Shown: positions 6,251 through 46,540, counted from the first letter of the stretch. The stretch is DNA of 52,806 bases from Bacteroidota bacterium (GCA_034723125.1 JAYEOP010000021.1:1-52806), one strand, 5' to 3'. Notes: a model not told the origin generated them from the letters alone. A program made the numbers and translations.

Positions 6251-6258
6251 TTTATCAT
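6061..6258 (-). CDS. Small repeat-containing hypothetical protein (two SSPYND... units), possibly a decaying gene
   Basis: The ORF start overlaps the stop of the upstream 559-aa gene (ATGA at 6258-6255). It encodes two copies of a roughly 36-aa unit that correspond to the DNA tandem repeat. The third DNA copy is out of frame. Coding status is uncertain. Confidence 0.3.
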   Translation of the reverse strand: MIKCSSPYNDTFPQKDNNGIKEVANNKGLSTDISLVVNQDSSPYNDALSPEDREGIRNTVDNNRT

Positions 6259-11099: not shown

Positions 11100-12533
11100 T
11101 TAACCTAGATTAATATTAATGAATTTTTGAATTTCCTTCATTCTATTTTCATAATTTTTATCAGTGTCAATTAAATCATTAACAGTTTGACAAGCATGAA
11201 TTACTGTTGAATGATCGCGTCCTCCAAAATGTTTACCAATTACACAAAGTGAAGAATTAGTAAGTTTTTTAGAGAAAAACATTGAAATCTGACGTGCTTG
11301 CACAATTTCTCTTTTTCTAGTTTTTGCTTTTATATCATCAATACTTATATTTAAATGATCGGCAACCAGTCTTTGAATATGTTCAATTGTGAGGTCTTTT
11401 GATGATTTTCTAATAAATCCTTTAAGTACCTCTTTTGCCAAATCAACCGACATTTCTTTTTTATTGTAAGATGCCTGAGCAAGGATTGATATCAAAGCAC
11501 CTTCAAGCTCTCTAACACTAGTATTTACATGGTATGCAATATATTCAACAACATCCCTAGGCATTTCTATACCGTCAGCATACATTTTGTTTTCAAAAAT
11601 TGCAATCCTTGTTTCAAAGTCAGGCTTTTGAAGATCTGCTGATAATCCCCATTTAAATCTTGAAAGTAATCGTTCTTCCAATCCTTGAATATCTTTTGGA
11701 GATCTATCGGAGGTAAGAACTATTTGCTTTCCATTTTGATGTAAACTATTAAAAATATGAAAGAAAATATCTTGTGTTTTTTCCTTTTTAGAAAAGAACT
11801 GAACATCATCAACAATGAGAACATCAATTAGTTGATAAAAATTAATAAAATCATTAACAATTTTATTTTTTAATGATTCAATAAATTGGTTAGTAAATTG
11901 TTCAGCAGAAACATACAGTATTACTTTATTTCTAAAATTATTTCTAACCTCATTCCCTATTGCCTGAGCCAGATGAGTTTTTCCTAAGCCAACACCTCCA
12001 TAAATAAAAAGCGGATTAAAAGAAGTACCACCCGGTTTTGCAGCAACTGCCAAACCAGCACTACGTGCAAGCCTGTTACATTCACCTTCTACAAATTGTT
12101 TGAAATTAAAATTACTATTTAACTGAGGATCAACTTTTATCTTTTTTAAACCAGGAATAATAAATGGATTTTTTATAGAATTACTAATGTTAACAGGCAT
12201 TGATATTTCCATACCACCATCATTACTAAAATGAGATGCCGGCATATTTATCGTTCTTTGAGCATTTCCTGAACTGCTGTTTTCCACAAGGATATTATAT
12301 TCTAATTTAGCACCGGTACCAATTACTTTTTTTATTATTTTACGCAACAAATTAACATAATGTTCTTCAAGCCACTCATAAAAGAAAAGACTAGGCACCT
12401 GAATAGTAAGTACCTTTTTTTCTAATTTAACCGCTTCAATTGGATTAAACCATGTTTTGTAACTTTGTGCATTAATATTATCTTTAATAATTTTAAGACA
12501 TTTCTTCCAAACTTCAATATGCTGTTCGCTCAT
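11100..12533 (-). CDS. dnaA: Chromosomal replication initiator protein DnaA
   Basis: The domain I start is WKKCL..IKDNI....YKTWF. It has Walker A GGVGLGKTHL, Walker B LIVDDVQF, sensor motifs and the C-terminal DNA-binding helix (HSTVIHA). Confidence 0.97.
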   Translation of the reverse strand: MSEQHIEVWKKCLKIIKDNINAQSYKTWFNPIEAVKLEKKVLTIQVPSLFFYEWLEEHYVNLLRKIIKKVIGTGAKLEYNILVENSSSGNAQRTINMPASHFSNDGGMEISMPVNISNSIKNPFIIPGLKKIKVDPQLNSNFNFKQFVEGECNRLARSAGLAVAAKPGGTSFNPLFIYGGVGLGKTHLAQAIGNEVRNNFRNKVILYVSAEQFTNQFIESLKNKIVNDFINFYQLIDVLIVDDVQFFSKKEKTQDIFFHIFNSLHQNGKQIVLTSDRSPKDIQGLEERLLSRFKWGLSADLQKPDFETRIAIFENKMYADGIEMPRDVVEYIAYHVNTSVRELEGALISILAQASYNKKEMSVDLAKEVLKGFIRKSSKDLTIEHIQRLVADHLNISIDDIKAKTRKREIVQARQISMFFSKKLTNSSLCVIGKHFGGRDHSTVIHACQTVNDLIDTDKNYENRMKEIQKFININLG

Positions 12534-14968: not shown

Positions 14969-17209
14969 ATGATTACAAATCATTTAAATAGAACTAAATT
15001 GAAAAATTTTACTACTTCATTTTTTATTTTATTATTTTTCTTTATTTCAACTTTATCAAAAGGACAGGGTGCAGTTGATCACTGGGAAACCATAATATTT
15101 CCACAATTTTCATGGGATTATTTTGTTGGTACTACCGAGCCCGATTCCACATGGAATACACTTGCTTTTAACACAAGTAATTGGAATAAAGGAAAAGGAG
15201 GAATTGGTTATGCCGATGGAGATGACAGAACAATTATTCCATCTACAATATCACTTTACATGAGAATGAAATTTATGGTACCTGATAAGGATAAAATTGC
15301 CAGAATTATATTATCAATGGATTATGATGATGCATTTGTAGCCTACCTAAATGGAACAGAAATAGCAAGGTCGAACATAGGAACTGTTGGGATTAAACCA
15401 AAGTACAATGATACATCATTAACATTTCATGAAGCGGTTATGTATAAAGGTGAGGATCCTGAATCATTTTCCCCATCAATAGATTTAATATCTAATACAC
15501 TTTCCACAGGAATGAATGTACTTGCAATTCAAGTACATAATACAGGTATTACTTCATCCGACATGTCAGCAATACCATTTTTATTTGCAGGCATTAATGA
15601 TAAAAGTACATTTTATGCACCACCTCCTTCATGGTTCAAGGTAGCTAATATTTTCATTTCTTCAAATTTGCCAATTATCCAAATCAATACATTAGGAAAT
15701 ACAATTGTTGATGAGCCAAAAATAACTGCTGAAATGACAATTATTAATAATGGACCTGGAAAATTAAACATTCTTTCAGATTCATCAACGGACTATTCAG
15801 GACAAATCGGAATTGAATACAGAGGACAGTCTTCTCAGGAATTTATAAAAAAATCAATGGCAATTGAAACTCGCAAATCTGATGGAAGCAATAATAATGT
15901 TTCTATTTTTGGTTGGCCAAAAGAAAACGATTGGATTTTATATGCTCCTTACAGTGATAAAAGTCTGTTACGAAATGTTCTTACTTTGAAATTAGCAGAA
16001 GCAACAAATCAATATTCATCAAGGACAAAATTTTGTGAATTATTTATTAATGGAGACTATAAAGGCGTTTATGTTTTTATGGAAAAAATCAAAAGAGACA
16101 ATGGAAGAGTAAATATTTCAAAATTAAAAAGCAGTGACATAACAGGAGATGACCTTACAGGTGGATATATAATAAAGGTTGATAAATCGGATACCATTGC
16201 AGAAGGTTGGTATTCGTACCCAAGTCCTGCATATCCTGATGCAATGATTCTCTTTTTATCATATCATTATCCTAAATGGGATGAAATAGTTCCCAAACAA
16301 AAAGAATATATACAAAATTATATCTTAGATTTTGAAAATACTTTAGTTAGCAATGAGTTTGCTGACCCGCTAACAGGTTATTCAAAATACATTGATATAA
16401 GTTCATTTATTGATTTTTTATTGATAAACGAACTTAGTAAAGACATTGATGCTTTTAAATACAGCGTTTTTATGTACAAAAATAAAGATAGCAAGGGTGG
16501 AAAATTAAAAATGGGACCATACTGGGATTTTAATCTTGGATATGGGAATGTTAACTATGGTGATTATCATGTAGATTCAACAGGGGGCTGGATTTATAAC
16601 AAAGCATACAAAATGTTTTGGTTTGAAAGATTAATGCAAGACACAAATTTTCAAAACAAAGTAAAATGCAGATGGAATAAATTAAGGAAAGGTCCTTATA
16701 AAACAGATATTGTACTAAGCTATATTGATTCAATGACAAATTATTTAGATGAGGCTCAAAAACGAAATTTTAATGAATACCATATACTAGGAAGATATAT
16801 TTGGCCAAACAAATATGTTTTTGATACTTATGAAGAAGAAATCAGTTATTTAAAAGATTGGCTTTCTGCTCGTTTTGAATGGATGGATAATAACCTACCC
16901 GGATATTGTGATCCATCGGCAATTGATGAAAAGTCAAATCCCGATTTTTACCTCACTAGCTACCCTAATCCATTTACTAACAACTTTAACTTAAGTTATA
17001 ATTTGCAAAAAACTGCAAATGTTGAAATTAGCATTTATGATATTACAGGGAAATTACTAAAAACAGTTGTAAACAAAAATCAAAGACAGGGAAATTATTT
17101 CCTTAATTTTGATATAAAACAAGTAAATATTAATTCAAAAGGAATATATTTATGTGTAACAAAACTGAACAACAAAACAATATCTATTAATAAACTTGTT
17201 AAGTATTAA
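14969..17209 (+). CDS. CotH-family (atypical kinase fold) secreted protein with a T9SS C-terminal sorting domain
   Basis: It has a signal peptide. The central region has NLPIIQINT, IEYRGQSSQ, DWILYAPYSDKSLLRN and F.ELFINGDYKGVYVFMEKIKRD, typical of CotH. The C-terminal roughly 80 aa (YPNPFTNNFNLSY...GIYL) matches the Por/T9SS sorting domain pattern. Confidence 0.85.
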   Translation: MITNHLNRTKLKNFTTSFFILLFFFISTLSKGQGAVDHWETIIFPQFSWDYFVGTTEPDSTWNTLAFNTSNWNKGKGGIGYADGDDRTIIPSTISLYMRMKFMVPDKDKIARIILSMDYDDAFVAYLNGTEIARSNIGTVGIKPKYNDTSLTFHEAVMYKGEDPESFSPSIDLISNTLSTGMNVLAIQVHNTGITSSDMSAIPFLFAGINDKSTFYAPPPSWFKVANIFISSNLPIIQINTLGNTIVDEPKITAEMTIINNGPGKLNILSDSSTDYSGQIGIEYRGQSSQEFIKKSMAIETRKSDGSNNNVSIFGWPKENDWILYAPYSDKSLLRNVLTLKLAEATNQYSSRTKFCELFINGDYKGVYVFMEKIKRDNGRVNISKLKSSDITGDDLTGGYIIKVDKSDTIAEGWYSYPSPAYPDAMILFLSYHYPKWDEIVPKQKEYIQNYILDFENTLVSNEFADPLTGYSKYIDISSFIDFLLINELSKDIDAFKYSVFMYKNKDSKGGKLKMGPYWDFNLGYGNVNYGDYHVDSTGGWIYNKAYKMFWFERLMQDTNFQNKVKCRWNKLRKGPYKTDIVLSYIDSMTNYLDEAQKRNFNEYHILGRYIWPNKYVFDTYEEEISYLKDWLSARFEWMDNNLPGYCDPSAIDEKSNPDFYLTSYPNPFTNNFNLSYNLQKTANVEISIYDITGKLLKTVVNKNQRQGNYFLNFDIKQVNINSKGIYLCVTKLNNKTISINKLVKY

Positions 17210-17277: not shown

Positions 17278-18459
17278 ATGAAAATACGTCCTGGCAATAT
17301 TATTTTTCTTATTATTTTATTTATTCCGTTTTGGAGTTGGCTTTGGTGGTATTTTAGTCCAACTTACCCGATGAACATTCTTACATTAGATAAAACTGTT
17401 TCTACACCATTTAGAAATGAACATCGTTCTTTAAATTGGATACAAACCCACAATAAATATGTAAAAAAATCAGATGGTAAACTTTACAGTAACTTCAAAG
17501 ATTACTATGGTTTTTTTCCCTTAAAACCTTATGAAAACAAAAAATACTGGATAAGCGACCTTGATTCCTTATCGAAAGAACAAATTGATTCAATGTCTGA
17601 TGCACTTGATATGGTTTACTATACCGACCTTTACGGAGTTTATTACAATGAATGGTACCTTGATTCTCTTGAAACAGAACATTCGCCAAAAATTTATGGA
17701 GGAATGTCAAGAACAGATTATCTGCTTCTTGAAAAAATGAAGGAAAAGAAAAAACTAATACTCACTGAATTTAATATCATTGCATCTCCAACATCATGGG
17801 TAGTTCGTAGAAAAACAGAAGAACTTTTTAATTTTGAATGGACAGGTTGGACAGGTAGATATTTTAATTTATTAGACACTTTAAAAAACCCTGAATTACC
17901 CAGATGGGTAATACGGCTTTATAAAGAACAACACGATGGTAATTGGCCATTTACAAAAGCAGGAATTGTATTTGTTCATTTAGACGAAAGAATTGCAATA
18001 CTTGAAAAGCGTACATCTCTTGATGTTGAAGTCCCTTTTATTTATACATCCGAATATGGACAAAAGAAATATGACTTACCAAAAAAAATCCATTATCCAT
18101 ACTGGTTTGATATCACTTTCACAAAAAACACAAATAAAGTTGTTTCATCCTACAAAATAAAACCTAACGATGTTGGCGATTCAATATTAACACTATACGG
18201 AATTCCTACAGAATACCCGGCTTTTATTGAACACGATGAAGACGATTATAAATTTTATTACTTTGCAGGAGACTTTTCAGATAATCCTATTACATTATAT
18301 TCTTCGCATTTTCGTGGTATTGGGCTTATTAGTAGGGTCTTTTATAAAAATGCAACATTTAATGAAAGAACAAAATTCTTTTGGAGATATTATAAACCGG
18401 TAATGGAAACAATTATTGAAAACTATACAGATGAAAGAAATTTGTTTAATGAAAAATAA
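17278..18459 (+). CDS. Hypothetical N-terminally anchored protein, aromatic-rich, no recognisable domain
   Basis: It is a long ORF with a single N-terminal TM (NIIFLIILFIPFWSWLWWYF). It is on the same strand as, and 51 nt upstream of, the Hpt gene. Confidence 0.7.
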   Translation: MKIRPGNIIFLIILFIPFWSWLWWYFSPTYPMNILTLDKTVSTPFRNEHRSLNWIQTHNKYVKKSDGKLYSNFKDYYGFFPLKPYENKKYWISDLDSLSKEQIDSMSDALDMVYYTDLYGVYYNEWYLDSLETEHSPKIYGGMSRTDYLLLEKMKEKKKLILTEFNIIASPTSWVVRRKTEELFNFEWTGWTGRYFNLLDTLKNPELPRWVIRLYKEQHDGNWPFTKAGIVFVHLDERIAILEKRTSLDVEVPFIYTSEYGQKKYDLPKKIHYPYWFDITFTKNTNKVVSSYKIKPNDVGDSILTLYGIPTEYPAFIEHDEDDYKFYYFAGDFSDNPITLYSSHFRGIGLISRVFYKNATFNERTKFFWRYYKPVMETIIENYTDERNLFNEK

Positions 18460-18510
18460 TATAATTTAAATTTACGAATAACATTAAACGCTTTAAATTA
18501 AGCACATAGG

Positions 18511-18870
18511 ATGGTAGAACAAAAATTATATAACGCTAGCAGATTAGAAGAAATGACAGATGGTGATACTAAATTTGCCAAAGAGATGATAGAATATTTT
18601 ATCAATATTTATGAAGAAGTTATTCAAAACTTATTTTATTACTATGAAAAAGAAGATTGGAATATGCTAAGAAGAACTGCCCATAAATTTCTTTCAAATG
18701 CAAGTATGCTTGGAGCATTTAGTATTGTTGGAAATATTGACGAAATTGAAGACCTTGCTTTGCAAAAAAAGAAAAATGATAATATTCCTGAACTAATTAA
18801 TACAGTAAATAAAGACTGCAAGATATTATCTATTCAATTTGAAAATGATTTTTTAAAAGATAATAATTAA
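18511..18870 (+). CDS. Histidine phosphotransfer (Hpt) domain protein
   Basis: It is 119 aa and helical. RRTAHKFLSNASMLGA fits the Hpt HxxKG-type phospho-histidine helix. It lies immediately upstream of a receiver gene. Confidence 0.7.
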   Translation: MVEQKLYNASRLEEMTDGDTKFAKEMIEYFINIYEEVIQNLFYYYEKEDWNMLRRTAHKFLSNASMLGAFSIVGNIDEIEDLALQKKKNDNIPELINTVNKDCKILSIQFENDFLKDNN

Positions 18871-18887
18871 AATAAATTATATAAAAA

Positions 18888-19250
18888 ATGAAAGTTTTAG
18901 TATGTGAAGACGACACCATGATTCTGAAAATGATTGAATTACGACTCAAGAAAGATGGTTATGATATTACAATTGCAAAAGATGGGAAAAATGGAGCAAC
19001 AATGATAAAAGAAAATAAATTTGATTTAATAATTACTGATTTGCTCATGCCGTTTTTTAGTGGTTTGGAATTAATTAACCTTATAAGAAATGAATTAAAA
19101 CTTCAAACACCTTTAATAGTTTTATCCTCAGTAAAATTTGAGGATACTATTTTAAAGGCATTTGAACTTGGTGCTGATGATTATATTGTTAAACCATTTA
19201 GCCCAAATGAACTTTCAATTAGAGTAAAACGACATATTAAAAAAAGATAA
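18888..19250 (+). CDS. Stand-alone response-regulator receiver (CheY-like) protein
   Basis: It has the acidic pocket CEDD, the phospho-acceptor IITDLLMP, the conserved S in LSS and KPF. There is no output domain (120 aa). Confidence 0.9.
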   Translation: MKVLVCEDDTMILKMIELRLKKDGYDITIAKDGKNGATMIKENKFDLIITDLLMPFFSGLELINLIRNELKLQTPLIVLSSVKFEDTILKAFELGADDYIVKPFSPNELSIRVKRHIKKR

Positions 19251-21043
19251 TGACAAATAAATTTGCATATTCCATTTTTTTGATATGTTGTATTCTAAAC
19301 TTTACAAATATTAATATTGTAAAAGGTCAAAATATCATTCTTATCAATGAAATAGAAGATGTTGACAGTTCTTTTTTGCTTGCACGTGAATATGCATTTA
19401 ATGGCTCAAGAGACACTTCAAGAGCAATTTGCTATAAAATTTTAGAAAGAGCACCATCTTATGATGATGTCCGAATACTTATTGGCAGAACTTATACATG
19501 GGATGGAGAGTACTCAAAAGCAAGAAAAGAATTTAAAACCGTTTACGATAGCTCACCCGATTATTATGATTTAATAAATGCTATTATTGACCTTGAAAAA
19601 TGGTCGGAAAATTACGATAAAGCAATTGAATATTGTATGCACGGATTAAGCTATTATCCTTTTGATAGTAATTTTTTATACAAAAAAGCAGACATCCTTG
19701 ACAGTAAAAAAGAATATGATTTATCATTAGAAATTGTTGATTCATTAATATTTAAATACCCTAAAGACACTTTATTCACAAATCTCAAAGAATCAATTTT
19801 AGAACATATTGAAATACAGAATGACACAATTGATACAGACAGTCTTTTTATGCAAGCCCGAGAATATGCTTTTAATGGAAAACGTGATTCTTCAAGAATA
19901 CTTTGCCAACAAATTTTAAATAAAAACCCAAATTATCATGAAGTAAGAACTTTGTTAGGACGAACTTATCTTTGGGATAAAAAATATAATTTAGCAAAAA
20001 AAGAATTTCATAAAGTACTTTTAGATGATTCGGCAAATTACCAAGCAATAAGTGCTTCTATTGATTGCGAAAACTGGTCAGACGATTACGACTCGGCATT
20101 AAGTTTTTGCAATTATGGATTATTTTATCATCCTAATGACTGTGATTTCCTTTATAAAAAAGCAAGTGTTTTTGATAATCAAGAAGAATACGATACCGCC
20201 CTTAAAGTATTGAAATATTTAAATACACTATGTCCCGAACATGAAAAAGGCAACTCATTGCTTAAAAATGTAAAAGCTTCAAATCAAAAAAACAGCATTT
20301 CGTTAAACTATTCATTTGAATATTTTGGTATTCCTTGGAACAGAAGATTTCATCTTACTACTTTAAAATACGGACACAAATTTAAAAAATTCTCAATAAT
20401 TGCAAAATATTATATCGGTGATATGGTTTTTGATTCCGAACATCTTCTTACAAAAGATATTGATGGCGAGCCTGAATTAGATGTATATTTTGACATTTGG
20501 AAAGATGCTTATGCATGGACAAGCTATGGTTATTCATGGAATCACAATCTATTTCCACGACACCGATTCGGATTCGAAATTTATCAATCCTTACCAAATG
20601 CCTTTGAAACATCTTTGGGAATAAGGTACATGCAATTTTATCGCGATTCTGATAGTTCTGCAAATAACATTCTTATTTACACAGCATCTGTAGGAAAATA
20701 CATAGGAAACTGGTGGATATTATTAAGAACTTATATTTCTCCAAAATCCTATGGTGTTTCTAATTCCTTTCATTTGTCTTTTCGCAGATATTTTAAACAC
20801 AAAGATAACTATTTTTCAGTTGTACTTTCAACAGGAAATTCACCCGATGAAAGAATAAACAAAATTGGTGATTTTGATATGTTAGATTCTAAAAGGATTA
20901 GATTAGGATATAAAGATAAAATTTCTTCTTCTTTTTTATATGAAATTAGAGTAGGATATAATTATGAAGAATATAAAACAGATAACAATATTAATAATCG
21001 TAATGCTTATGATGCTAGTATTTTATTAGAATATTTATTTTAA
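19250..21043 (+). CDS. Outer-membrane TPR plus C-terminal beta-barrel protein (YaiO/PgaA/NfrA-like polysaccharide exporter candidate)
   Basis: It has a signal peptide. Two tandem roughly 160-aa TPR modules are clearly paralogous (AREYAFNG.RD.SR..C..IL...P.Y..VR.L.GRTY.WD..Y..A.KEF). The C-terminal roughly 270 aa shows alternating aromatic/hydrophobic beta-strand patterns and ends in ...LLEYLF, a terminal Phe typical of OMPs. The start overlaps the receiver gene's stop by 1 nt. Confidence 0.75.
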   Translation: MTNKFAYSIFLICCILNFTNINIVKGQNIILINEIEDVDSSFLLAREYAFNGSRDTSRAICYKILERAPSYDDVRILIGRTYTWDGEYSKARKEFKTVYDSSPDYYDLINAIIDLEKWSENYDKAIEYCMHGLSYYPFDSNFLYKKADILDSKKEYDLSLEIVDSLIFKYPKDTLFTNLKESILEHIEIQNDTIDTDSLFMQAREYAFNGKRDSSRILCQQILNKNPNYHEVRTLLGRTYLWDKKYNLAKKEFHKVLLDDSANYQAISASIDCENWSDDYDSALSFCNYGLFYHPNDCDFLYKKASVFDNQEEYDTALKVLKYLNTLCPEHEKGNSLLKNVKASNQKNSISLNYSFEYFGIPWNRRFHLTTLKYGHKFKKFSIIAKYYIGDMVFDSEHLLTKDIDGEPELDVYFDIWKDAYAWTSYGYSWNHNLFPRHRFGFEIYQSLPNAFETSLGIRYMQFYRDSDSSANNILIYTASVGKYIGNWWILLRTYISPKSYGVSNSFHLSFRRYFKHKDNYFSVVLSTGNSPDERINKIGDFDMLDSKRIRLGYKDKISSSFLYEIRVGYNYEEYKTDNNINNRNAYDASILLEYLF

Positions 21044-21093
21044 AGAAAACAACAAATAATTTGAATACACACACAATTAAAATATTGAATTTC

Positions 21094-23139
21094 ATGCGTT
21101 CTCAAAACCTATTAAAAGTTATTTCAACAATAATATTTTTGGGAATTGTACAATTTTGCCTCTACTCAAATGCATTTGCACAGCAACAAGATGTTACTTT
21201 GAGTGTCCAAATATCTGCAAGAAAAGGAAGTCCCGGAGACATGATTTTTTTGAAAAAAAGACATAAAATAGACAAGGAAATTAAAGAGATACTTGACAAT
21301 GGCAGATATAAATATGTTGTTGGAACTTTTTACAATTACAATGATGCTAAAGAATACCGAAACGAACTAATAGATGAACACGGATTAAAAGATGCTTTTA
21401 TTGTTGCAATTCAAAACGAGAAAATACTTAATAACTGGGACAGAAATAATTATATAGCTTCTTCAAAAAAAACAACACCTCAAAAAGTTGAAGACTCGGA
21501 AGAAAAACCTCCAACTAATATTGAGGAAGAGAATGTTGTAGAACCTACAAGCACTACCGATAAAAAAGAAGAGCCTAAAAAGGAAAAGTCAACACAAGAA
21601 ATTGAAAAACCACAGAAAAAAAACATTGGATTTGCCGAAGCTTTTATTAACAAAGAAAATATATTCCCACATCTTTCAAATAAAAAAGTAGAAATAGAAG
21701 ATAAAAGTAACAAAAAAGAAAAAAAGCCTGAAAAAAAAGAAGTAGAGAAAAAGGATAATCAAGAAAAAGAAACAACAAAGCACGAACAAAAAGAAAAGAG
21801 CAAACTAAATACTATATTTTCAAAAAGAAAATCTAAAAAAGAAAATGAGGATAAAGTTGATAAAAAAGATCAACCGAAAAAGAAAAAACAAGCAAAAGCA
21901 AAAAACAAGCAAGAAGAAAATAAAGAAAAAATAGTTGAAAAAGAAGAAAAACCGGAACATTGGACAGGTGAAGCTGAAAAAGCAGAAACAACTAAGGAAG
22001 TAGTAGAAAAACTAAAAAAGGACAAAAGTTTACCATTTCCTCAAAATATTTTACATCCTATAATGAATGTAGTAGAAACAACTTTTAATTCAAACAAGAT
22101 AATTATTATGGCAATTATCTTGATATTTTATTTCCAGTTAAGTTTTATTCTATTAGTTATTTTCATTGTAATACAACGATTTATTAAATCCGCAAAGGAT
22201 AAAAAGATTGAAATAGTAAAAGAAAAATATCAAAATATTATTGCTGAATATCTTTTTAGTGATGAGCATGAAAATAAAATTCCTACTGAACTGATAAAAA
22301 TAAACTCCTATTTAAAAACAGACATTTTAGTACAAGAAGTATTATCATTACACAAAAATCTTTCAGGAACGACCTATGAAAGACTAATGAATCTTTACCT
22401 TGAATTATCATTGCATACCCACTCATTAAAAAAACTTAATAGCAGAAAATGGCATATTGTAGCAACAGGAATACAGGAACTTACACAAATGAAAGTAGGA
22501 TTAGCTACTCAACGTATTGAGCAATTTATAAATCACTCAAATGAAATTATTCGCTTAGAAGCTCTACTTGCAATTATAAGATTAAATAAAACAAATCCGT
22601 TTTCTTTTCTTGATAAATATACAGAAGATTTTACAGAATGGGAAAAGCTTAATATTCATTACCTAATAGATAGACATGAGATTAAAATTCCTGATTTTAA
22701 AAAATGGTTGTCATCACATAATGATGATGTAGTAATATTCTGTCTTCAAATGATAGCAATATTCAAGCAACAAAATGCATTTGATGACCTGATTAAACTT
22801 TTAAGTCATCCTAATAAAAAGATAATTCAAAAATCAATTACTGCTCTCGGCATTAATGGAAATTCTGATGCTTCTAAATATTTAAAAGATATTTATAATT
22901 ATGTTTATCATCAAAATAAAATTAGAATTATTATTACTTTAGGGGATTTTAATGATGAATCAAATGTCGATTTTCTGGAAAATATTTTATCCGATAATAA
23001 TTTTGATTTAAGATTCCATGCTGCAGAATCACTTGACAAAATTGGCATGTCCAGTGATAAATACCTTGATATAGCAAAAAAGGATGAAGATACAGAATTA
23101 GAAACAATTGTTAAACACATTTTTATTGAAAGAATCTAA
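21094..23139 (+). CDS. Bitopic membrane protein: SPOR-like domain, K/E-rich linker, TM helix and cytoplasmic HEAT/armadillo-like repeats
   Basis: The track ORF starts at a TTG at 21061. The ATG at 21094 gives a clean signal peptide, MRSQNLLKVISTIIFLGIVQFCLYSNAFA. YKYVVGTFYNYNDAKEYRNELIDEHGLKDAFIVA resembles a SPOR domain. A roughly 200-aa K/E-rich tract follows, then a TM segment (IIIMAIILIFYFQLSFILLVIFIVI). The C-terminus has repeated helical units (EIIRLEALLAIIRL, KKIIQKSITALG, DLRFHAAESLDKIG). Confidence 0.7.
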   Translation: MRSQNLLKVISTIIFLGIVQFCLYSNAFAQQQDVTLSVQISARKGSPGDMIFLKKRHKIDKEIKEILDNGRYKYVVGTFYNYNDAKEYRNELIDEHGLKDAFIVAIQNEKILNNWDRNNYIASSKKTTPQKVEDSEEKPPTNIEEENVVEPTSTTDKKEEPKKEKSTQEIEKPQKKNIGFAEAFINKENIFPHLSNKKVEIEDKSNKKEKKPEKKEVEKKDNQEKETTKHEQKEKSKLNTIFSKRKSKKENEDKVDKKDQPKKKKQAKAKNKQEENKEKIVEKEEKPEHWTGEAEKAETTKEVVEKLKKDKSLPFPQNILHPIMNVVETTFNSNKIIIMAIILIFYFQLSFILLVIFIVIQRFIKSAKDKKIEIVKEKYQNIIAEYLFSDEHENKIPTELIKINSYLKTDILVQEVLSLHKNLSGTTYERLMNLYLELSLHTHSLKKLNSRKWHIVATGIQELTQMKVGLATQRIEQFINHSNEIIRLEALLAIIRLNKTNPFSFLDKYTEDFTEWEKLNIHYLIDRHEIKIPDFKKWLSSHNDDVVIFCLQMIAIFKQQNAFDDLIKLLSHPNKKIIQKSITALGINGNSDASKYLKDIYNYVYHQNKIRIIITLGDFNDESNVDFLENILSDNNFDLRFHAAESLDKIGMSSDKYLDIAKKDEDTELETIVKHIFIERI

Positions 23140-23142
23140 ATT

Positions 23143-24567
23143 ATGCTTGAACTATTAAAAATATTACAAGAATTACTCAACCTTGTATTTTTCCTGTTTG
23201 GAATATTTGTTGTCTTTGCATATCTTGCACTAGCGGTAATTTCAGCTTTTGCACTTATACATTATATGCGAAAAAACAGTTTTGTAGATTACAATAAAAT
23301 TCTTTCATCACCTTTTGCCCCATCAGTTTCTGTGATTGCACCTGCTTTTAACGAAGGAAAAACGATTATTGATAATGTTCATGCTTTACTACATTTATAT
23401 TATCAAGATTATGACATTCTTATTGTAAACGATGGAAGCAAAGATGATACACTTAGCAAACTAATAGAATCCTTTTCACTCAAAAAAGTTACTTACGCAG
23501 TTGATTTCAGACTAGAGCATAAAGAGATAATTGGCATATACAAATCTACAAACCAATCCTTTGGGATGTTAACAGTTATTGACAAAAGAAACGGTGGAAA
23601 AGCAGACGCTTTAAATGCAGGTATAAATGTATCAAGAAAAGATGTTTTTGTTGTAATTGATGTTGACTCAATATTAGAACAAGATGCATTATTAAGACTT
23701 GCAAAACCATTTCTTGAACAAAGAGAAAAAACAGTACTCACTTCGGGAAGTGTAATTCGTATTGCAAACTCATGTGAAATAGAAAGTGGGAAAATAATTA
23801 ATGTCAATTACCCTAAAGAATATTTAGCAAAATTTCAGGTTCTTGAATATAATAGATCATTTTTGATGGGAAGAATGGCTTGGGCGAAACTTAACGGACT
23901 ACTACTCATAAGTGGTGCAATGGGAATGTTTAACCGAGATGTAATTATTGACTGCGGGGGTTACAGCACTAAAACAGTAGGTGAAGACATGGAATTAATT
24001 GTTCGTGTAAGAAGACACATGGAAGAAATTAATCAGAAATATGATGTAGTGTATATACCCGACCCTCTTTGCTGGACAGAAGTTCCTACTAGTCTTAAAA
24101 TTCTTGGAAATCAAAGAAACAGATGGACAAGAGGAAACATGGGAACTCTTTTTATGCATCGTAAAATCTTTTTCAATCCACAATATGGAACAATGGGAAT
24201 GTTAGGTTATCCTTATTGGTTCATTTTTGAATGGCTTGCACCTTTAATGGAATTCTTTGGGTTAATATACTTTATTTTCCTTGCTGTAGTTGGTGCCTCA
24301 AACTGGCCGTTTTTCTTAATGCTATTAACATTTGTTTATTCTTTTGCTATAGTATTTTCAACATGGTCAATACTGTTTGAAGAACTTACTTTTGACAGAT
24401 ATAAAAAGAAAACTGACTTAATAAAATTATTCTTTACTGCACTAATTGAACCTTTCCTTTATCATCCATTAACTGTTTTTTGGTCACTTATGGGAAACTA
24501 TGATTATTTCCGTGGCAAAAAAACTTGGGGTAAAATGGAAAGACATGGCTTTACGCATAGTGCATAA
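23143..24567 (+). CDS. Processive family-2 glycosyltransferase (PgaC/IcaA/NfrB/BcsA-type polysaccharide synthase)
   Basis: An N-terminal TM is followed by a GT-A domain with VIAPAFNE, NDGSKDDT, GGKADALN, VIDVDS, GEDMEL and QRNRW (24112-24126). Several C-terminal TM helices follow. It starts 3 nt after the preceding gene. Confidence 0.9.
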   Translation: MLELLKILQELLNLVFFLFGIFVVFAYLALAVISAFALIHYMRKNSFVDYNKILSSPFAPSVSVIAPAFNEGKTIIDNVHALLHLYYQDYDILIVNDGSKDDTLSKLIESFSLKKVTYAVDFRLEHKEIIGIYKSTNQSFGMLTVIDKRNGGKADALNAGINVSRKDVFVVIDVDSILEQDALLRLAKPFLEQREKTVLTSGSVIRIANSCEIESGKIINVNYPKEYLAKFQVLEYNRSFLMGRMAWAKLNGLLLISGAMGMFNRDVIIDCGGYSTKTVGEDMELIVRVRRHMEEINQKYDVVYIPDPLCWTEVPTSLKILGNQRNRWTRGNMGTLFMHRKIFFNPQYGTMGMLGYPYWFIFEWLAPLMEFFGLIYFIFLAVVGASNWPFFLMLLTFVYSFAIVFSTWSILFEELTFDRYKKKTDLIKLFFTALIEPFLYHPLTVFWSLMGNYDYFRGKKTWGKMERHGFTHSA

Positions 24568-24592: not shown

Positions 24593-24810
24593 CACATCCT
24601 GCATCTTGCATCCTGTATCTTGCATCCTGCATCTTGCATCCTGCATCCTGGCATCTTGAATCCTGCATCCTGCATCCTGCATCCTGCATCTTGAATCCTG
24701 CATCCTGCATCCTGCATCTTGAATCCTGCATCCTGCATCTTGCATCCTGCATCCTGCATCTTGCATCCTGCATCCTGCATCTTGTATCTTGTATCTTGTA
24801 TCTTGTATCT
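24593..24810. repeat. Heptanucleotide microsatellite, about 31 units of TGCATCC / TGCATCT / TGAATCC / TGTATCT
   Basis: I parsed it by hand into 31 consecutive units. One is an 8-nt unit (tggcatct, 24649-24656), and the array ends with four TGTATCT units. A recurrent three-unit (21-bp) super-period is visible. Confidence 0.95.
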
Positions 24811-24814
24811 TGCC

Positions 24815-25984
24815 CTACCTTACCTTCTTAATAACTTTCTCAACTTCCTTGATTAGGCTTTGAAAAATTTCATCCTTTTTGCCAAGACCGTCAATATCAA
24901 TAACAGGACTTTGTTTTTTGTAATATTTTAAAATCGGTTGTGTTTTCTTTTCATGTTCCTGTAGCCTTTCAACAATAGTTTCAGTATTAGAATCATATTC
25001 CATTCTGTTTTCTGTTTTTCCCCTTAAAGCCAATCTTTTTACTAATTCTAAATGAGGAACATTAATATTAAAAATACATGAAATTGAAGAATTTATCTTT
25101 AACAGTAGCCCATCAAGAATATATGCCTGAACCATTGTTCGTGGAAATCCTTTAAAAATAAATCCATTTGTATCAGGATTCATTTCAATTCTTTTTTCTA
25201 TCAACTTAATTACAATTTCATCAGGAACCAATGCACCTTTTTCCATTAAACGTTCTACTCTTTTACCAAGTGAAGAAGCTTTTTTGATTTCTTCCTGAAG
25301 CATATCACCTGTCGAAAGATAAGTGAGATTATATTTTTCTGCCAGTATTTGTGCCTGAGTTCCTCTGCCTGCTCCCGGATATCCAAAAATTACAACATTT
25401 AAAAGCACTTTTCTTAAAGCAATTTCAATACTTTCTTGAACTTCTGAAAACACATCTTCAATTTTTCCCGTACCATCAATTCCTATATAATTATTTTTTT
25501 CTTTATAAAATGAAATTACAGGAACAGTTTTGTTGTCATATTCCTTAAGCCTGTTTTGAATAATTTCTTTTGTATCGTCTTTCCTATTTTCTATTTCTGC
25601 TCGTTTCAATAACCTTTTAACAGATTCTTCTTTAGGCACTTCAAGGCTTATTAAACTTGTTAATGAAGAATGTACTCTTAACAAAAGCCCTTCTAAAATA
25701 TAAGCTTGCACCAAGGTTCTTGGAAATCCATCAAATAAAAAACCACTTGATTCAGGGTGCATTTTAATTTTCTTTTCAATAATTTGTACAATTATTTCGT
25801 CAGAAACAAGCCCGCCTTTTTCAATAATATGCTTTGCTTCCAAACCGAGTTCTGTTTTTTCAGCTATTTCTGCTCTCAAAATATCACCGGTTGCAATGTA
25901 AATAAGATTATAATTTTCAATTAACAGCTTTGATTGAGTACCTTTTCCTGCTCCAGGAGGTCCAAATAGTGCAATGTTTAACAT
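24815..25984 (-). CDS. adk: Tandem two-domain adenylate kinase (Adk-Adk fusion); the second domain is divergent at catalytic positions
   Basis: Residues 1-192 form a canonical short-LID Adk (GPPGAGKGT, TGDILR, DGFPRT, R.DD..E.I..R). Residues 193-389 form a second full Adk fold with GYPGAGRGT, TGDMLQ and KGFPRT. No stop separates the two halves. Confidence 0.9.
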   Translation of the reverse strand: MLNIALFGPPGAGKGTQSKLLIENYNLIYIATGDILRAEIAEKTELGLEAKHIIEKGGLVSDEIIVQIIEKKIKMHPESSGFLFDGFPRTLVQAYILEGLLLRVHSSLTSLISLEVPKEESVKRLLKRAEIENRKDDTKEIIQNRLKEYDNKTVPVISFYKEKNNYIGIDGTGKIEDVFSEVQESIEIALRKVLLNVVIFGYPGAGRGTQAQILAEKYNLTYLSTGDMLQEEIKKASSLGKRVERLMEKGALVPDEIVIKLIEKRIEMNPDTNGFIFKGFPRTMVQAYILDGLLLKINSSISCIFNINVPHLELVKRLALRGKTENRMEYDSNTETIVERLQEHEKKTQPILKYYKKQSPVIDIDGLGKKDEIFQSLIKEVEKVIKKVR

Positions 25985-30382: not shown

Positions 30383-32398
30383 CTATTTTTTCACAAAAGG
30401 TAAAACCTTAGAAATATCTTTGTCTGAGAAAAATCTTATTAAATAATATCCTGATGATAATTCTGCTGTTGAAATTGAAATTATTGAATTATTATAGCTT
30501 ATAAATTTTGCATTTTTAACAACTTTTCCATCCATTGTAAATATTTTATAAACACCTTCTTTCGTAAATTCTGCATTAATTTTTACATTTAGAATATCAC
30601 TTACAGGATTTGGAAAAAGCTGTATTGATTCGTTTTTAACCATTTTTTCTTTTGTACCTAATGTACCCCAGTAACCATTTTTATTAATAACAATTATATC
30701 ATTTATCGGAGGATTGCTCACTCTTGTGTAGGTAATAGGGTTTGTTTGCCATCTAATTACAATTGAATCAACTGTGCTATTATTGTCCAAACCAAAATTT
30801 CTAATAAAAGGTTGCTGACCGCTAAAATGACCAAAGCCTGCCGATACTTCCCGTGTTTGTGCAACTCCTCCCGAATAAACTGTTATTCGTGAGCCAATCC
30901 CACTTTTATTTGAAGCTTGCGGAGGGTCAAGTTTTATTCCTACCCAATTATTGAATTCACCAACTTTATTTTCAATCAGAAGCACTTCATGTTTAGCTTC
31001 ATGCTCTCCGTTGCCGTGGCAAAGTAAAATATCATCATCACCGTCAAGGTCAAAATCAATAGGTTGGATTGAATAAAGTTCTCTAATCATAGTGCTTACT
31101 CCTGCAATTCCAATATCTGAGGAAATATCATCAAAATAATTATCTGATTGTTGTTGAGAAATAAACAATCTTGTATTATTTGAATATCCACCGTTTCCTA
31201 CTGCAAGGTCAAGAAGCATATCATTGTCCAAATCAAACCAACAAGCATCATAATCGCCAATATGAGATGCTCTCGGAGGTTTTCTTTCAACACGGTCAAG
31301 AGCCCATTCAAGTTCATAATTTCCACTTTCACCTTTATTGACAACAATTGTTGACCTTCCTGCAAGTTTCCCGAACACATCATTTCCAAATCCTCCATGT
31401 ACCAGAACATAAAAGAAATCCATATCTCCGTCATTATCAAAATCAGCAGGTTGACTTGCCCATGTACAAAGTGCTTTTGCTTTTGTCATTTGCATATCAG
31501 CCCAGCCATCTCCATTCAAAAATTGAGTGTTGTATCCAACAGTTTTAGCAACATCACGAAACCTACCGTTTTTCATATTTTTCCATAAGCTACCACCACT
31601 ACGGCAATATGGTGAAGTAGCAATATCCATCCATCCGTCATTATTCCAATCAGTAGCATTTACTCCGTACAACGGATAGTCATTTTGTTCAATCCATGTT
31701 TCAAAACTCACATCTGTAAAAGTACCATCACCATTGCCTTTAAGCATATAGCTTGAAGTTATTTTGTTATTTTTATAATCATCAAACCAAGATGCAACAA
31801 AAACATCAAGATTACCGTCAAGATTATAATCAAGAAACGACATTCCTGTTGTATTTACCAAACCTTCATCATTGCCTGAGTGAGGTCCTATTTTATTTAG
31901 TCCGCTGTTTTCTACAAGTTCAAATTCTCCCCATCCTTTGTTCAACAAAACTTCACATCTATCTCCGGGGTCGTTGCTGTCGGGATGATAATATTCCCAC
32001 CTATGATAATAAATTCCTGTAATGCAATCGTTATCTCCGTCATTATCAATATCTCCAAAAATAACATTATCTATCACCCTACCCTTTTCGCCATTTCTCC
32101 TTATGTCAATATGTGAGCCTTTTGTAATGTCTTCAAAAAATCTGTCTTTTGGATTTGATGAACCGGGCTTTTGAATATTTCTGTATAATTTTATATGACC
32201 TTTGTTAAGATTTGCTTCAATAATAGCAATATCGGGATAATGATCGTTGTTGATATCCACAACATAAACATAGGAAGCACGTGCACTGTCAAGCCCAACA
32301 TCTTTAGTAACATTTTCAATCCAGCTTTCTGATTGTGAAAATGTTTTTATTGAGAAACTTATTAAAATAACAAAAGTGAGATAAATGTTCTTTTTCAT
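30383..32398 (-). CDS. FG-GAP/VCBS-repeat protein with an ASPIC/UnbV domain (CRTAC1 family) and a T9SS C-terminal sorting domain
   Basis: It has a signal peptide and repeated D.N.DG..D calcium-binding FG-GAP loops. GIGSRITVYSGG..QTREV.AG.G..S resembles the UnbV/ASPIC domain. The C-terminal LFPNPVSDILNV...GYYLIRF matches a T9SS CTD. Confidence 0.85.
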   Translation of the reverse strand: MKKNIYLTFVILISFSIKTFSQSESWIENVTKDVGLDSARASYVYVVDINNDHYPDIAIIEANLNKGHIKLYRNIQKPGSSNPKDRFFEDITKGSHIDIRRNGEKGRVIDNVIFGDIDNDGDNDCITGIYYHRWEYYHPDSNDPGDRCEVLLNKGWGEFELVENSGLNKIGPHSGNDEGLVNTTGMSFLDYNLDGNLDVFVASWFDDYKNNKITSSYMLKGNGDGTFTDVSFETWIEQNDYPLYGVNATDWNNDGWMDIATSPYCRSGGSLWKNMKNGRFRDVAKTVGYNTQFLNGDGWADMQMTKAKALCTWASQPADFDNDGDMDFFYVLVHGGFGNDVFGKLAGRSTIVVNKGESGNYELEWALDRVERKPPRASHIGDYDACWFDLDNDMLLDLAVGNGGYSNNTRLFISQQQSDNYFDDISSDIGIAGVSTMIRELYSIQPIDFDLDGDDDILLCHGNGEHEAKHEVLLIENKVGEFNNWVGIKLDPPQASNKSGIGSRITVYSGGVAQTREVSAGFGHFSGQQPFIRNFGLDNNSTVDSIVIRWQTNPITYTRVSNPPINDIIVINKNGYWGTLGTKEKMVKNESIQLFPNPVSDILNVKINAEFTKEGVYKIFTMDGKVVKNAKFISYNNSIISISTAELSSGYYLIRFFSDKDISKVLPFVKK

Positions 32399-32471
32399 TT
32401 TTAGAATATTATTTTTTAAAAATACGAATGTAATAAACTTATCCTTGAGTCCACTCTAAAAACTATTATAA

Positions 32472-33596
32472 TCAACCTTCTGTTATTCCCATACTTTTAG
32501 ACAACAATTCAGCAGTTTTATCCCATGAAAACTTCTGTTTTTGAACTTTTAATTTTTCGATAAGTTTTTTTCGTAGTGTATCGTCTTCTGCAATTTTTTG
32601 CATTGCAATAGCAATTTCTTCAACATCAAAAGGATTTACAATCAATCCTGCATCTCCTACTACTTCGGGCAATGATGAACTGTTGGAAGTAATTACCGGA
32701 ACATTGCAAGCAAATGCTTCAATTAATGGAATTCCAAAACCTTCAAAATAAGAGACATAAGTCATTGCAACTGCGGAAGCTATATATTTCGCCAAACGTT
32801 CATTGGAAACTCGTCCTGTAAAAATAATATCATTTTTATATTTCATGGAATCAAAAACATCTTCCATTTCTTTTGTTCCCCAAGCTTTTCTACCAACAAT
32901 AACAAGCTTTATTTCTTTTTGTGAATTATCCCTGAATTTCTCATAAGCTTTTAAAAGATTAGGAATATTTTTTCGTTGATGCAAAGCACCTACATATACA
33001 AAATAATCTTTTGAAGCTGTCAGTTCTTTTTTTACATCTGCTTTTTCTTTTTCGGATAATGCTTTAAAAATATCGGAAGCACCATTGTAAACAACATCAA
33101 TTTTATTTGGCTCAATACCATATTTTTGAATTAAATCATTCTTAGAAAATTCTGATACAGTAGCAATTCTATCAGCTTTTTGAGCAAACTTAGGGAAATA
33201 ATACTTGTAATATTTCTTTACTAAAAAAGGAATATCCTTAGGATAATGTTCAAAAGCAAGATCGTGAATAACCGTTAATGATTTGGTTTTATTTCTTAAA
33301 GGTAAATATCCATCCATAGAAACAAAAATATCAGCATTAATTTTTTTTAGAACTTTTGGCAACGACCATTCAAACCATAAATACCAAAGAAAAGGATGAC
33401 GGGCTTGAGGATGAACAATAATAGCTTCGATGTTTTTGGAGAAAATAAATTCCTTATCAACTTTTCTGTCAAAAAGAAAATAAAATTTATGCTCAGGATA
33501 TTTTTCAGTAATAATTTTTAGTGTTTCAAAAGTAAAAACACCAATTCCTTCGAGTTTATCTTTTATTAAAAACCTTGTATTTACAGCAATTTTCAT
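32472..33596 (-). CDS. Family-4 (GT-B) glycosyltransferase
   Basis: The C-terminal EGFGIPLIEAFACNVPVITSN...PEV.GDA signature (E-x7-E region) is typical of GT4 enzymes. Confidence 0.9.
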   Translation of the reverse strand: MKIAVNTRFLIKDKLEGIGVFTFETLKIITEKYPEHKFYFLFDRKVDKEFIFSKNIEAIIVHPQARHPFLWYLWFEWSLPKVLKKINADIFVSMDGYLPLRNKTKSLTVIHDLAFEHYPKDIPFLVKKYYKYYFPKFAQKADRIATVSEFSKNDLIQKYGIEPNKIDVVYNGASDIFKALSEKEKADVKKELTASKDYFVYVGALHQRKNIPNLLKAYEKFRDNSQKEIKLVIVGRKAWGTKEMEDVFDSMKYKNDIIFTGRVSNERLAKYIASAVAMTYVSYFEGFGIPLIEAFACNVPVITSNSSSLPEVVGDAGLIVNPFDVEEIAIAMQKIAEDDTLRKKLIEKLKVQKQKFSWDKTAELLSKSMGITEG

Positions 33597-33935
33597 CTAT
33601 TAACACTTCAAAAACAAAATGCTAAATTAAGAAAACAATTTGTAATAAAGTATGCTATAAAAAAACCATTCTTTCAATAAAAATTAAATTGTTATTTCGG
33701 ATGATTATCTCTTCAACTATCCGTAAAATAAGGTGTTGGAATTTGTGTGCTAACTTCTACTGATAATTTAAATTAGCATAAAAAAACAAAACAACATAAC
33801 AAAATAATTTTCGTTTCAATAATTCGCTGTTAATAAAGTTTTTTTCAGACCTTTGCCATTGCAAAAAATTGAAAATGATTGTTACTAACATCAAGGATAT
33901 TTTGAGAAGAAACAATGAATTGAACTAAATCAAAT

Positions 33936-34949: not shown

Positions 34950-34997
34950 TTTTTTTCAACATTTATTCTTTAAAAGAACTCAATAAAAACTCAGCAA

Positions 34998-41668: not shown

Positions 41669-41676
41669 AGAATAAT

Positions 41677-41783
41677 TTGGCAATTACATACTTTCCCACC
41701 TATTGGCAGTAACATCTGCGTAAATGAGCTTAACTTCTCTGTTCGAAATGGTAAGAGGTGAACCTCATTGCTATAATCACCAA
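41677..41783 (-). rRNA. rrf: 5S ribosomal RNA
   Basis: The minus strand reads TTGGTGATTATAGC...CCATTTCGAACAGAGAAGTTAAGC...GGGAAAGTATGTAATTGCCAA. The ends pair as helix I. It lies downstream of the 23S. Ends are accurate to about 3 nt. Confidence 0.85.
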
Positions 41784-41820
41784 ATTAAATTTTTATAAAC
41801 ATGCTGGAAATAAAAAATTA

Positions 41821-44709
<2,889 letters not shown>

Positions 44710-44775
44710 GAATTTTAAATTTCCAGCATGTAAAAGAACTTTGTTTTCTATAGACCAAATGTCTATTTTTTGTTG

Positions 44776-44849: not shown

Positions 44850-44862
44850 TCATATAATCTAG

Positions 44863-45017: not shown

Positions 45018-46540
<1,523 letters not shown>

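Follow-up and report, generated by a model that had tools for sequence, protein, structure and literature searches.

A Pga-like exopolysaccharide synthase cluster of Bacteroidota with a HEAT-repeat partner and a putative phosphorelay switch

Introduction

To our knowledge, all characterised synthase-dependent polysaccharide machines (cellulose, poly-N-acetylglucosamine, Pel, alginate and Nfr) are switched on by cyclic di-GMP (c-di-GMP). In the Pga system the nucleotide is bound at the interface of PgaC and PgaD without any recognisable domain. Few c-di-GMP enzymes are generally found in Bacteroidota, which are major bacteria of the gut, of soil and of the sea; c-di-GMP signalling is sparse in this phylum, and the control of its matrix is poorly understood. 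Here we describe a cluster of six open reading frames (ORFs), all on the plus strand, at positions 17278-24567 of a 52,806-nucleotide stretch of DNA (GCA_034723125.1, JAYEOP010000021.1:1-52806; hereafter the window). The window comes from an NCBI metagenome-assembled genome (MAG) contig labelled 'Bacteroidota bacterium', with a G+C content of about 29%. The cluster encodes a membrane glycosyltransferase of family 2 (GT2), a protein with tetratricopeptide repeats (TPR) and an outer-membrane barrel, a transmembrane (TM) protein with HEAT repeats, a stand-alone histidine phosphotransfer protein (Hpt), a stand-alone receiver (REC) and an anchored protein of 393 aa.

Two described regulators offer points of comparison for a receiver encoded next to a glycosyltransferase. 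In Myxococcus xanthus, the single-domain response regulator EpsW is reported to activate polysaccharide synthesis by binding the priming phosphoglycosyl transferase EpsZ (PMC12802240). In Flavobacterium johnsoniae, RgzA (Fjoh_3925) is a GAF-HK-REC-Hpt kinase (HK, histidine kinase) and the adjacent RgzB (Fjoh_3924, Asp51) is a single-domain regulator of the CheY type. The pair drives the formation of biofilm-like zorbs around a polysaccharide core, which arise on activation of RgzA; the partners of RgzB are stated to be unknown and no glycosyltransferase is mentioned (bioRxiv 10.64898/2026.07.01.735801).

We propose that the six genes encode a Pga-type synthase-dependent exopolysaccharide machine that is turned on by the final receiver of a His-Asp-His-Asp phosphorelay, a reading that we consider reasonably probable as a whole. 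That the cluster has the composition of a synthase-dependent secretion system linked to a phosphorelay is, taken by itself, highly probable. Literature searches, for which most subscription journals lay outside coverage, returned no published description of this gene set, and the public annotation of homologues carries generic names only.

Results

A predicted PgaC-like processive synthase

Three GT2 families match the synthase, at 61 to 77 bits. The best NCBIfam model is TIGR03937 (PgaC_IcaA), with 126.3 bits against an equivalog cut-off of 422.3, so that the protein does not reach the status of a PgaC equivalog. When the GT2 family was compared with E. coli proteins by hhalign, PgaC was aligned over 269 columns with 99.8% probability (E 1.8e-27, about 31% identity) and YaiP was matched with 98.6% probability. 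No match to NfrB was obtained by the same method, and a relation of the synthase to NfrB was rejected. Homologues are abundant: 7995 of 8000 scored candidates were retained at E<=1e-10, the best 120 of them being 57-76% identical, and sequences at about 60% identity number in the thousands.

An earlier note on this DNA, made from the sequence alone, had recognised in the GT2 a motif set typical of processive synthases. This set is indeed present (NDGSKDD, DVD, GEDME and QRNRW), and 25 homologues (57-76% identity) show no exchange at its key residues D97, D173, D175, G280-E281-D282 and Q324-R325-x-R327-W328. The protein that carries these motifs has one TM helix on the N-terminal side of its GT-A catalytic domain and, on the C-terminal side, interface helices, three TM helices and a conserved cytoplasmic tail (W462, G463, R467, G469 and F470). 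The family profile also matches residues 318-441 of BcsA, a segment that includes the catalytic-base and QxxRW region, the interface helices and the first TM helix. An AlphaFold2 model of the synthase (predicted local distance difference test, pLDDT, 71) was matched over its whole length by the hyaluronan synthase of a Chlorella virus in the first place, then by yeast Chs1 and BcsA. The non-processive GT2 enzymes GtrB, TarP and ArnC gave lower fold scores and matched the GT-A part only. A grouping with non-processive enzymes, which according to the earlier note would have refuted its reading, was not seen.

The protein thus shows the D, DxD, (T/G)ED and QxxRW motifs of an inner-membrane processive GT2 together with a TM channel of its own. 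Taken together, the results make it a membrane synthase of PgaC-like type in which no catalytic motif of the processive, polymerising and translocating GT2s is missing. As far as sequence and fold can say, it is a processive synthase.

A candidate exporter with a YaiO-family barrel

The 597-aa protein starts with a signal peptide, continues with two TPR blocks (residues ~40-345) and finishes with a C-terminal barrel (347-597) that ends in ...EYLF. The entire PF19413 (YaiO) profile is covered with 139.4 bits (cut-off 23.9, E 1.6e-40), TIGR04390 matches with 110.5 bits (cut-off 32, E 1e-31), and several TPR families match as well. The terminal Phe is found in 43 of 62 members of the barrel family. 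A beta-barrel C-terminus, on which the interpretation of the earlier note depended, is thus well supported. In hhalign comparisons the barrel family aligned with E. coli YaiO over 179 columns (E 5e-5). Matches to PgaA and NfrA were weak and limited to the TPR part (8% and 3% probability, respectively); homology of the barrel to either protein was rejected, no relation being detectable beyond these TPR matches. The likeness to PgaA, BcsC, PelB and NfrA exporters that had been put forward consequently holds for the layout, and does not hold for the family, which is YaiO.

The joining of TPR to an outer-membrane barrel is a hallmark layout of synthase-dependent exporters. With an outer-membrane beta-barrel and periplasmic TPR encoded beside the synthase, and a YaiO family score above the curated cut-off, the 597-aa protein appears as a candidate outer-membrane exporter. 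In E. coli K-12 (L085 in our set of related loci, NC_000913 380069-384616), yaiO, yaiX, yaiP and yaiS lie in one minus-strand row and encode, besides YaiO, an acyltransferase (yaiX, split by IS2), a membrane GT2 (yaiP) and a deacetylase (yaiS). As yaiO is found there beside a GT2 gene, the YaiO barrel and a glycan-forming GT2 are paired in two distant phyla, which by analogy supports a role of the barrel in glycan export. The E. coli row itself may be a cryptic glycan export cluster whose barrel and GT2 families are common with those of the window.

A single-pass TM-HEAT protein as inner-membrane partner

The gene between barrel and synthase encodes, in this order, a signal peptide, a SPOR-like domain, a K/E-rich linker, one TM segment (residues ~340-372) and a HEAT solenoid of about 320 aa. 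A database protein (P0241) that is 99% identical has 681 aa, which makes the ATG at 21094 a likelier start than the upstream TTG; the gene probably begins at this ATG. Basic residues follow the TM segment in the sequence, an arrangement that places the HEAT domain in the cytoplasm and the SPOR-like domain in the periplasm. The HEAT domain is therefore likely to lie on the same side of the membrane as REC, Hpt and the GT-A domain of the synthase.

The description of this protein as SPOR-like/TM/HEAT was confirmed. HEAT_2 matches with 58 bits, and SPOR (PF05036) scores above its cut-off in 8 of 10 long homologues; the SPOR region of the window protein itself stays below Pfam reporting. The family was rebuilt from the related loci and from a search of representative sequences with the C-terminal 363 aa, because the K/E-rich linker had swamped the full-length search, which returned two proteins. 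It comprises 270 clusters at 50% identity (E<=1e-30). HEAT_2 is present with no other signalling domain in 38 of 40 homologues, and the minimal form found elsewhere consists of one TM segment and HEAT repeats (345-380 aa). Conserved surfaces of the HEAT domain include an invariant Gly within an L/F-S-G motif and conserved Trp residues.

REC, TM-HEAT, GT2 and YaiO barrel form a conserved core

Gene neighbourhoods were counted over 61 related loci with at least 6 kb of sequence upstream of the GT2 gene, their ORFs being labelled by profiles built from the window proteins. The TM-HEAT gene directly precedes the GT2 gene in 59 of these loci. In 55 a gene of the YaiO type occurs no further than about 7-8 kb from the GT2 gene (up to 8 kb upstream and 7 kb downstream). 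A small REC gene stands upstream in 54 to 59, in 54 by ORF call; in L059, which has no such ORF call, REC was found by tblastn. Hpt, either free or within a kinase, is present in 30. The neighbourhood proposed in the earlier note is thus strongly conserved, and its core is REC, TM-HEAT, GT2 and the YaiO barrel.

The full six-gene row also occurs in L088, the closest relative (74% GT2 identity), and in L089, L004 and L009. The same five-gene row is present in a KSB1 genome (L001), where the gene of the 393-aa protein stands after the GT2 gene on the opposite strand. When each species was represented by one genome, at least 600 stretches were found to match the module. The best 80 of these are all from Bacteroidota, among them Flavobacterium, Chryseobacterium, Pedobacter, Mucilaginibacter, Chitinophaga, Polaribacter and Marinilabilia, as well as MAGs of Rikenellaceae, Odoribacter and Paludibacter. 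Since the gene order recurs in dozens of distant Bacteroidota genomes and in KSB1, it is more than a product of chance.

The receiver as putative last acceptor of a phosphorelay

The Hpt protein is recognised by PF01627 with 25.7 bits (cut-off 24.6). Its phosphorylatable histidine is H58, in AHKFLSNASMLGA, and all 10 stand-alone Hpt genes found at this position retain this residue. The protein is 32% identical (E 3e-10) to the C-terminal Hpt domain of a hybrid kinase from Flavobacterium (L048), with the His residues aligned, and this kinase occupies the position that Hpt has in the window. On the REC protein, Response_reg (PF00072) scores 91.5 bits and spans residues 3-113 of 120, so that an output domain would find no space. 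D51 serves as phospho-acceptor; conservation among 70 syntenic receivers is 93% for D8, 96% for D51 and 100% for K102.

The way in which these modules are distributed over polypeptides varies between loci, all states of fusion being represented. Hpt stands alone in the window, L088 and L089. It is joined to a receiver in a 256-aa REC-Hpt protein just before the terminal receiver in L008 (5051-5821), and a single REC-Hpt-REC polypeptide of 378 aa is found in L016 (6180-7313). In L048, L059 and others, GAF-PAS-HisKA-HATPase-REC(-REC)-Hpt kinases of 776-1311 aa are encoded directly upstream of the receiver; in the Flavobacterium loci L048 and L076 a GAF-PAS-HK-REC-Hpt kinase and a REC precede YaiO-HEAT-GT2 directly. 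Overall, a histidine kinase adjoins the cluster in 28 of the 61 loci, and in 20 of these 28 it carries a C-terminal Hpt. An Hpt with a conserved phospho-His and a receiver with acidic pocket, phospho-Asp and conserved Lys are thus both present. This pattern is as expected of a His-Asp-His-Asp relay in which the stand-alone receiver would be the last acceptor.

No c-di-GMP module in or around the cluster

Scans with Pfam and NCBIfam detected no PilZ, GGDEF, EAL or MshEN domain in the six cluster proteins, nor any c-di-GMP-binding domain in 40 HEAT homologues. The GG[DE]EF motif was absent from 1233 ORFs around 84 related loci, and the PilZ pattern RxxxR...[DN]xSxxG from the members of the GT2, HEAT, barrel, Hpt and 393-aa families; the loose PilZ pattern matched one of 116 REC-family ORFs. 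This motif scan is crude, and a site like that of the PgaCD interface would escape it. The absence of PilZ- or GGDEF-like motifs noticed earlier was confirmed by two kinds of search, and no c-di-GMP-binding domain came to light that would overturn it. In all, domain searches of the six proteins and 40 HEAT homologues revealed none of the c-di-GMP receptor domains of such systems (PilZ, PelD, Alg44 or MshEN). According to the annotation of E. coli, pga adjoins dgcT, and NfrB carries its own c-di-GMP domain.

The 393-aa protein and lineage-specific partners

The first gene of the cluster encodes the 393-aa protein, which is probably periplasmic. A helix at its N-terminus forms the anchor, and a flavodoxin-type domain of GATase1/ThuA-like kind, a domain rich in beta structure and C-terminal helices follow. 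Pfam and NCBIfam returned no family for the protein, in line with its earlier description as an orphan anchored protein, and none of its 528 homologues at about 50% identity has an assigned name; their named sources are Bacteroidota, Ignavibacteria and KSB1. The AlphaFold2 model is of high confidence (pLDDT 89, predicted template-modelling score 0.90), and its matches in the PDB are weak (template-modelling scores 0.3-0.46) and consist of GATase1/ThuA-like proteins, Agd3 and GH42. BcsB is absent from the 50 fold matches listed, and a BcsB-like role found no support. The gene is present in 12 of the 61 loci, always beside the GT2 or YaiO gene; in other genomes it follows the GT2 gene on the opposite strand or lies beside the YaiO gene. 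With this distribution, the 393-aa protein is a lineage-specific accessory.

Another partner, encoded in 23 of the 61 loci, is a multi-TM membrane protein whose periplasmic domain is of the sulfatase family (PF00884). It occurs as a separate protein in L060 (11394-13448, 684 aa), fused to TPR repeats in L068 (11434-13824, 796 aa; Flavobacteriaceae) and fused to the GT2 C-terminus in Chryseobacterium and relatives (L059:10001-13429, 1142 aa). The fusion to the GT2 speaks for an enzyme whose substrate is the GT2 product once it has left the cytoplasm. BcsG, OpgB and LtaS are enzymes of the same type, and by analogy this partner implies a phospho-substituted polymer in those lineages.

Rikenellaceae-type loci show a further conserved protein of about 910-930 aa, encoded right after the GT2 gene on the opposite strand (L018:11404-14172 (-)) and at the equivalent position in L022-L024, L026, L029, L030, L039, L041 and L049. 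Its only Pfam matches are an N-terminal CarboxypepD_reg and a FlgD_ig-like domain. It may be a lineage-specific glycan-processing partner.

Gene layout and genomic setting

The six tightly packed plus-strand genes described in the earlier note were all recovered (Table 1). They are separated, in order, by 51, 17, -1, 17 and 3 nt, and the stop codon of REC overlaps the start codon of the barrel gene. Scans for sigma-70 and Bacteroidota-type promoter patterns and for terminators gave chance-level results only, and no operon boundaries were drawn from them.

Table 1. Genes of the exopolysaccharide cluster in the window, with the families that match their products.
Feature	Coordinates	Strand	Family match
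393-aa accessory protein	17278..18459	+	
Stand-alone Hpt, 119 aa	18511..18870	+	PF01627
Stand-alone receiver (REC), 120 aa	18888..19250	+	PF00072
TPR + YaiO-family barrel protein, 597 aa	19250..21043	+	PF19413, TIGR04390, TPR families
SPOR-like/TM/HEAT protein, 692 aa, TTG start	21061..23139	+	HEAT_2
Predicted PgaC/IcaA-type GT2 synthase, 474 aa	23143..24567	+	TIGR03937 (best NCBIfam model)

In the window the cluster is surrounded by housekeeping genes. It lies about 5 kb from dnaA there as in L088, where it is equally placed after a dnaA-Metallophos-5'-nucleotidase-DUF7935 block. In the window dnaA is at 11100-12533 (-), and a complete rRNA operon (16S, two tRNAs, 23S, 5S) is at 41675-46541 (-). 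The gene at 14969-17209 (+), which immediately precedes the cluster, encodes a protein of the CotH kinase family that carries a C-terminal sorting domain of the type IX secretion system (T9SS). It was rejected as a seventh member of the cluster. The gene is missing from the equivalent junction in L088 and so looks like an insertion; in other loci no CotH domain was found near the GT2 gene beyond weak tblastn hits of 39-42 bits in five.

Downstream, 31 tandem CATCCTG heptamers fill positions 24595-24813 between the convergent genes of the GT2 and of an adenylate kinase. The array contains the variants CATCTTG, AATCCTG and TATCTTG, has 86% matches, is confined to this place within the window and explains the spurious repetitive ORFs called there. 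The adenylate kinase ORF (24815-25984 (-), 389 aa) contains two complete tandem kinase domains (PF00406 in two stretches, E 3e-95). A second, unrelated surface-glycan region extends over 30383-36440 and encodes a T9SS-sorted FG-GAP/ASPIC protein, a GT4 glycosyltransferase, a weak Wzz-like match and a Wzy_C (O-antigen ligase-like) protein. Among the housekeeping genes, a 559-aa protein with Schlafen AlbA_2 and HATPase_c_4 domains is encoded at 6255-7934 (-); this gene may be of defence or regulator type.

Discussion

Proposed mode of action

In the mechanism that we propose, a hybrid sensor kinase encoded outside the window would phosphorylate its own receiver, from which the phosphate would pass to H58 of the stand-alone Hpt and then to D51 of the stand-alone REC. 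With no output domain, REC can exert its effect only by binding, and the HEAT protein and the synthase are the neighbours that accompany it most constantly. For this reason we suggest that phosphorylated REC (REC~P) would dock either on the HEAT solenoid in the cytoplasm or on the synthase, by way of the conserved cytoplasmic tail. HEAT solenoids are binding platforms, and the HEAT protein would here fill the place that PgaD or IcaD has beside PgaC or IcaA. Docking would stabilise or open the active synthase complex and so turn on polymerisation and translocation. The polymer would be made from a UDP-sugar, pass through the TM channel of the synthase, be guided by the periplasmic TPR and exit by way of the YaiO barrel. 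Through its SPOR domain the HEAT protein would attach the complex to peptidoglycan, and the anchored periplasmic 393-aa protein would be an accessory. The step in which REC~P gates the synthase directly is suggested by synteny and topology, and we give it nearly even chances, slightly on the doubtful side.

Several points weigh against the proposal. The coupling of REC to HEAT or GT2 is deduced from gene order, translational overlap and a shared compartment, and the family members of atypical length that were checked included neither a HEAT-GT2 nor a REC-HEAT fusion. The Pfam score of Hpt is barely over its threshold, and confidence in the GT2 model is moderate. The 52.8-kb window encodes no histidine kinase, so that in this organism the gene of a hybrid kinase with a terminal receiver must lie outside it. 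On the export side, the YaiO barrel domain has here only about 250 residues, we know of no YaiO barrel for which polymer conduction has been shown, and the window contains neither a PgaB-like deacetylase or hydrolase nor a sulfatase-type modifier. Finally, the PgaC-PgaD interface binds its nucleotide with no recognisable domain, and domain searches could accordingly miss a cryptic nucleotide site.

Alternative readings

A stand-alone receiver could also leave the synthase untouched. Single-domain receivers often act as phosphate sinks or connectors, in which case the polymer would be controlled indirectly or at the level of transcription, or the receiver would mainly serve some other behaviour such as gliding, and the HEAT protein would have a structural or localising role only. 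The SPOR domain of the long HEAT forms suggests such localisation, no fusion of REC to HEAT or GT2 was found, and RgzA activation in F. johnsoniae shifts the expression of about 15% of genes. Yet the receiver gene stays directly upstream of barrel-HEAT-GT2 or HEAT-GT2 across orders of Bacteroidota and in KSB1 while kinase and Hpt genes come and go. Moreover, its stop codon overlaps the next start codon, and L081, the sole locus with no HEAT gene adjoining GT2, has no adjacent REC either. We regard this explanation as unlikely. Another one, which concerns the product and which we judge to be quite improbable, is that the glycan remains in the periplasm or at the surface, as an envelope polymer or as a glucan like the OPG (osmoregulated periplasmic glucans), with YaiO as an anchor or assembly factor and not as a channel. 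It would account for the sulfatase-family partner in 23 of 61 loci, which is of the type of OpgB, an enzyme that decorates periplasmic glucans, although the type is equally that of BcsG; it would also fit a barrel that is smaller than those of PgaA, BcsC and AlgE and has no detectable homology to PgaA or NfrA. What argues for export instead is the TPR and outer-membrane barrel layout, the position of the GT2 closest to PgaC and not to OpgH, and the lack of any glucan-branching or OpgG/D-like family in Pfam and NCBIfam scans of the cluster proteins.

It is also conceivable that c-di-GMP or another nucleotide gates the synthase through a site with no recognisable domain, the phosphorelay being only a second input. 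PgaCD is the precedent for a site of the kind that a domain search can miss, and the conserved residues of the GT2 tail (W462 to F470) have no assigned role. Nevertheless, PgaD is absent, the phylum generally has few c-di-GMP enzymes, and the surroundings of the related loci are free of GG[DE]EF motifs, unlike pga with its dgcT and unlike NfrB. Control by such a nucleotide is in our opinion very improbable. Returning to the phosphorelay-switched machine, its widest form would be that REC~P on the HEAT protein, in place of a cyclic dinucleotide, directly opens a PgaC-like synthase across Bacteroidota and neighbouring phyla, and that the same machine is the missing output of RgzA and RgzB. This extension is tentative, and we consider it more doubtful than the gating step itself.

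Significance

If the receiver gates the synthase, bacteria with sparse c-di-GMP signalling would have solved the same control problem a second time and independently. The YaiO barrel family would thereby gain a function, the cryptic yaiO-yaiP row of E. coli included, and RgzB of F. johnsoniae a concrete candidate target.

Comparison with known systems

The regulators of Flavobacterium and Myxococcus resemble the control part of the cluster. RgzA and RgzB have the kinase and receiver architecture that is encoded upstream of the cluster in the Flavobacterium loci L048 and L076. The H-box, receiver Asp and Hpt His of RgzA, at 192, 478 and 607, have roughly the same spacing as in the L048 kinase (334, REC 572-682, Hpt motif 759); unlike the kinases of L048 and L076, RgzA has no PAS domain. 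By this architectural likeness, the cluster synthase is a lead as the possible target of RgzB. In the literature covered, no mention of the nearby genes Fjoh_3920-3923 was found. EpsW-EpsZ differs in that it belongs to a Wzx/Wzy-dependent pathway, has a priming transferase as target and involves no HEAT partner (PMC12802240).

Among the synthase systems, Bcs with BcsG shares a processive QxxRW GT2, BcsA being matched by both the family profile and the fold search. In the relatives of the window, the multi-TM sulfatase-family enzyme encoded beside or fused to the synthase recalls BcsG, which binds BcsA (PDB 9b8v, in the fold list). In contrast to Bcs, the window cluster contains no PilZ, BcsB, BcsC-type barrel or sulfatase-type partner. 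NfrA, NfrB and YbcH of E. coli likewise come from a single operon in which a GT2 is combined with an outer-membrane protein that bears TPR and with an auxiliary protein, but the two GT2 families are not detectably related, and NfrB has its own c-di-GMP-binding domain while the window system has none. The yaiS-yaiP-yaiX-yaiO row of E. coli also encodes a YaiO barrel with a membrane GT2, both families being related to those of the window. It differs in that its YaiO has no TPR, that a deacetylase and an acyltransferase are present, and that HEAT, REC and Hpt genes are missing.

PgaABCD of E. coli has a GT2 related to that of the cluster, with the same succession of a short N-terminal TM part, GT-A domain, interface helices and C-terminal TM helices, an adjacent gene for a small membrane partner, and a TPR and barrel protein of the outer membrane in the operon. 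On the other hand, Pfam and NCBIfam scans detected no PgaB deacetylase/hydrolase in the window cluster, PgaD is absent, and profile comparison revealed no PgaA-type porin, the weak match to PgaA being restricted to TPR. The partner has TM and HEAT (and SPOR here) in place of PgaD, the barrel is of the YaiO family, and a receiver and an Hpt are found where Pga depends on c-di-GMP. In composition, the cluster is thus a Pga-like machine without PgaB, with a barrel from a different family, a HEAT protein instead of PgaD, and a phosphorelay receiver in the place of a c-di-GMP receptor.

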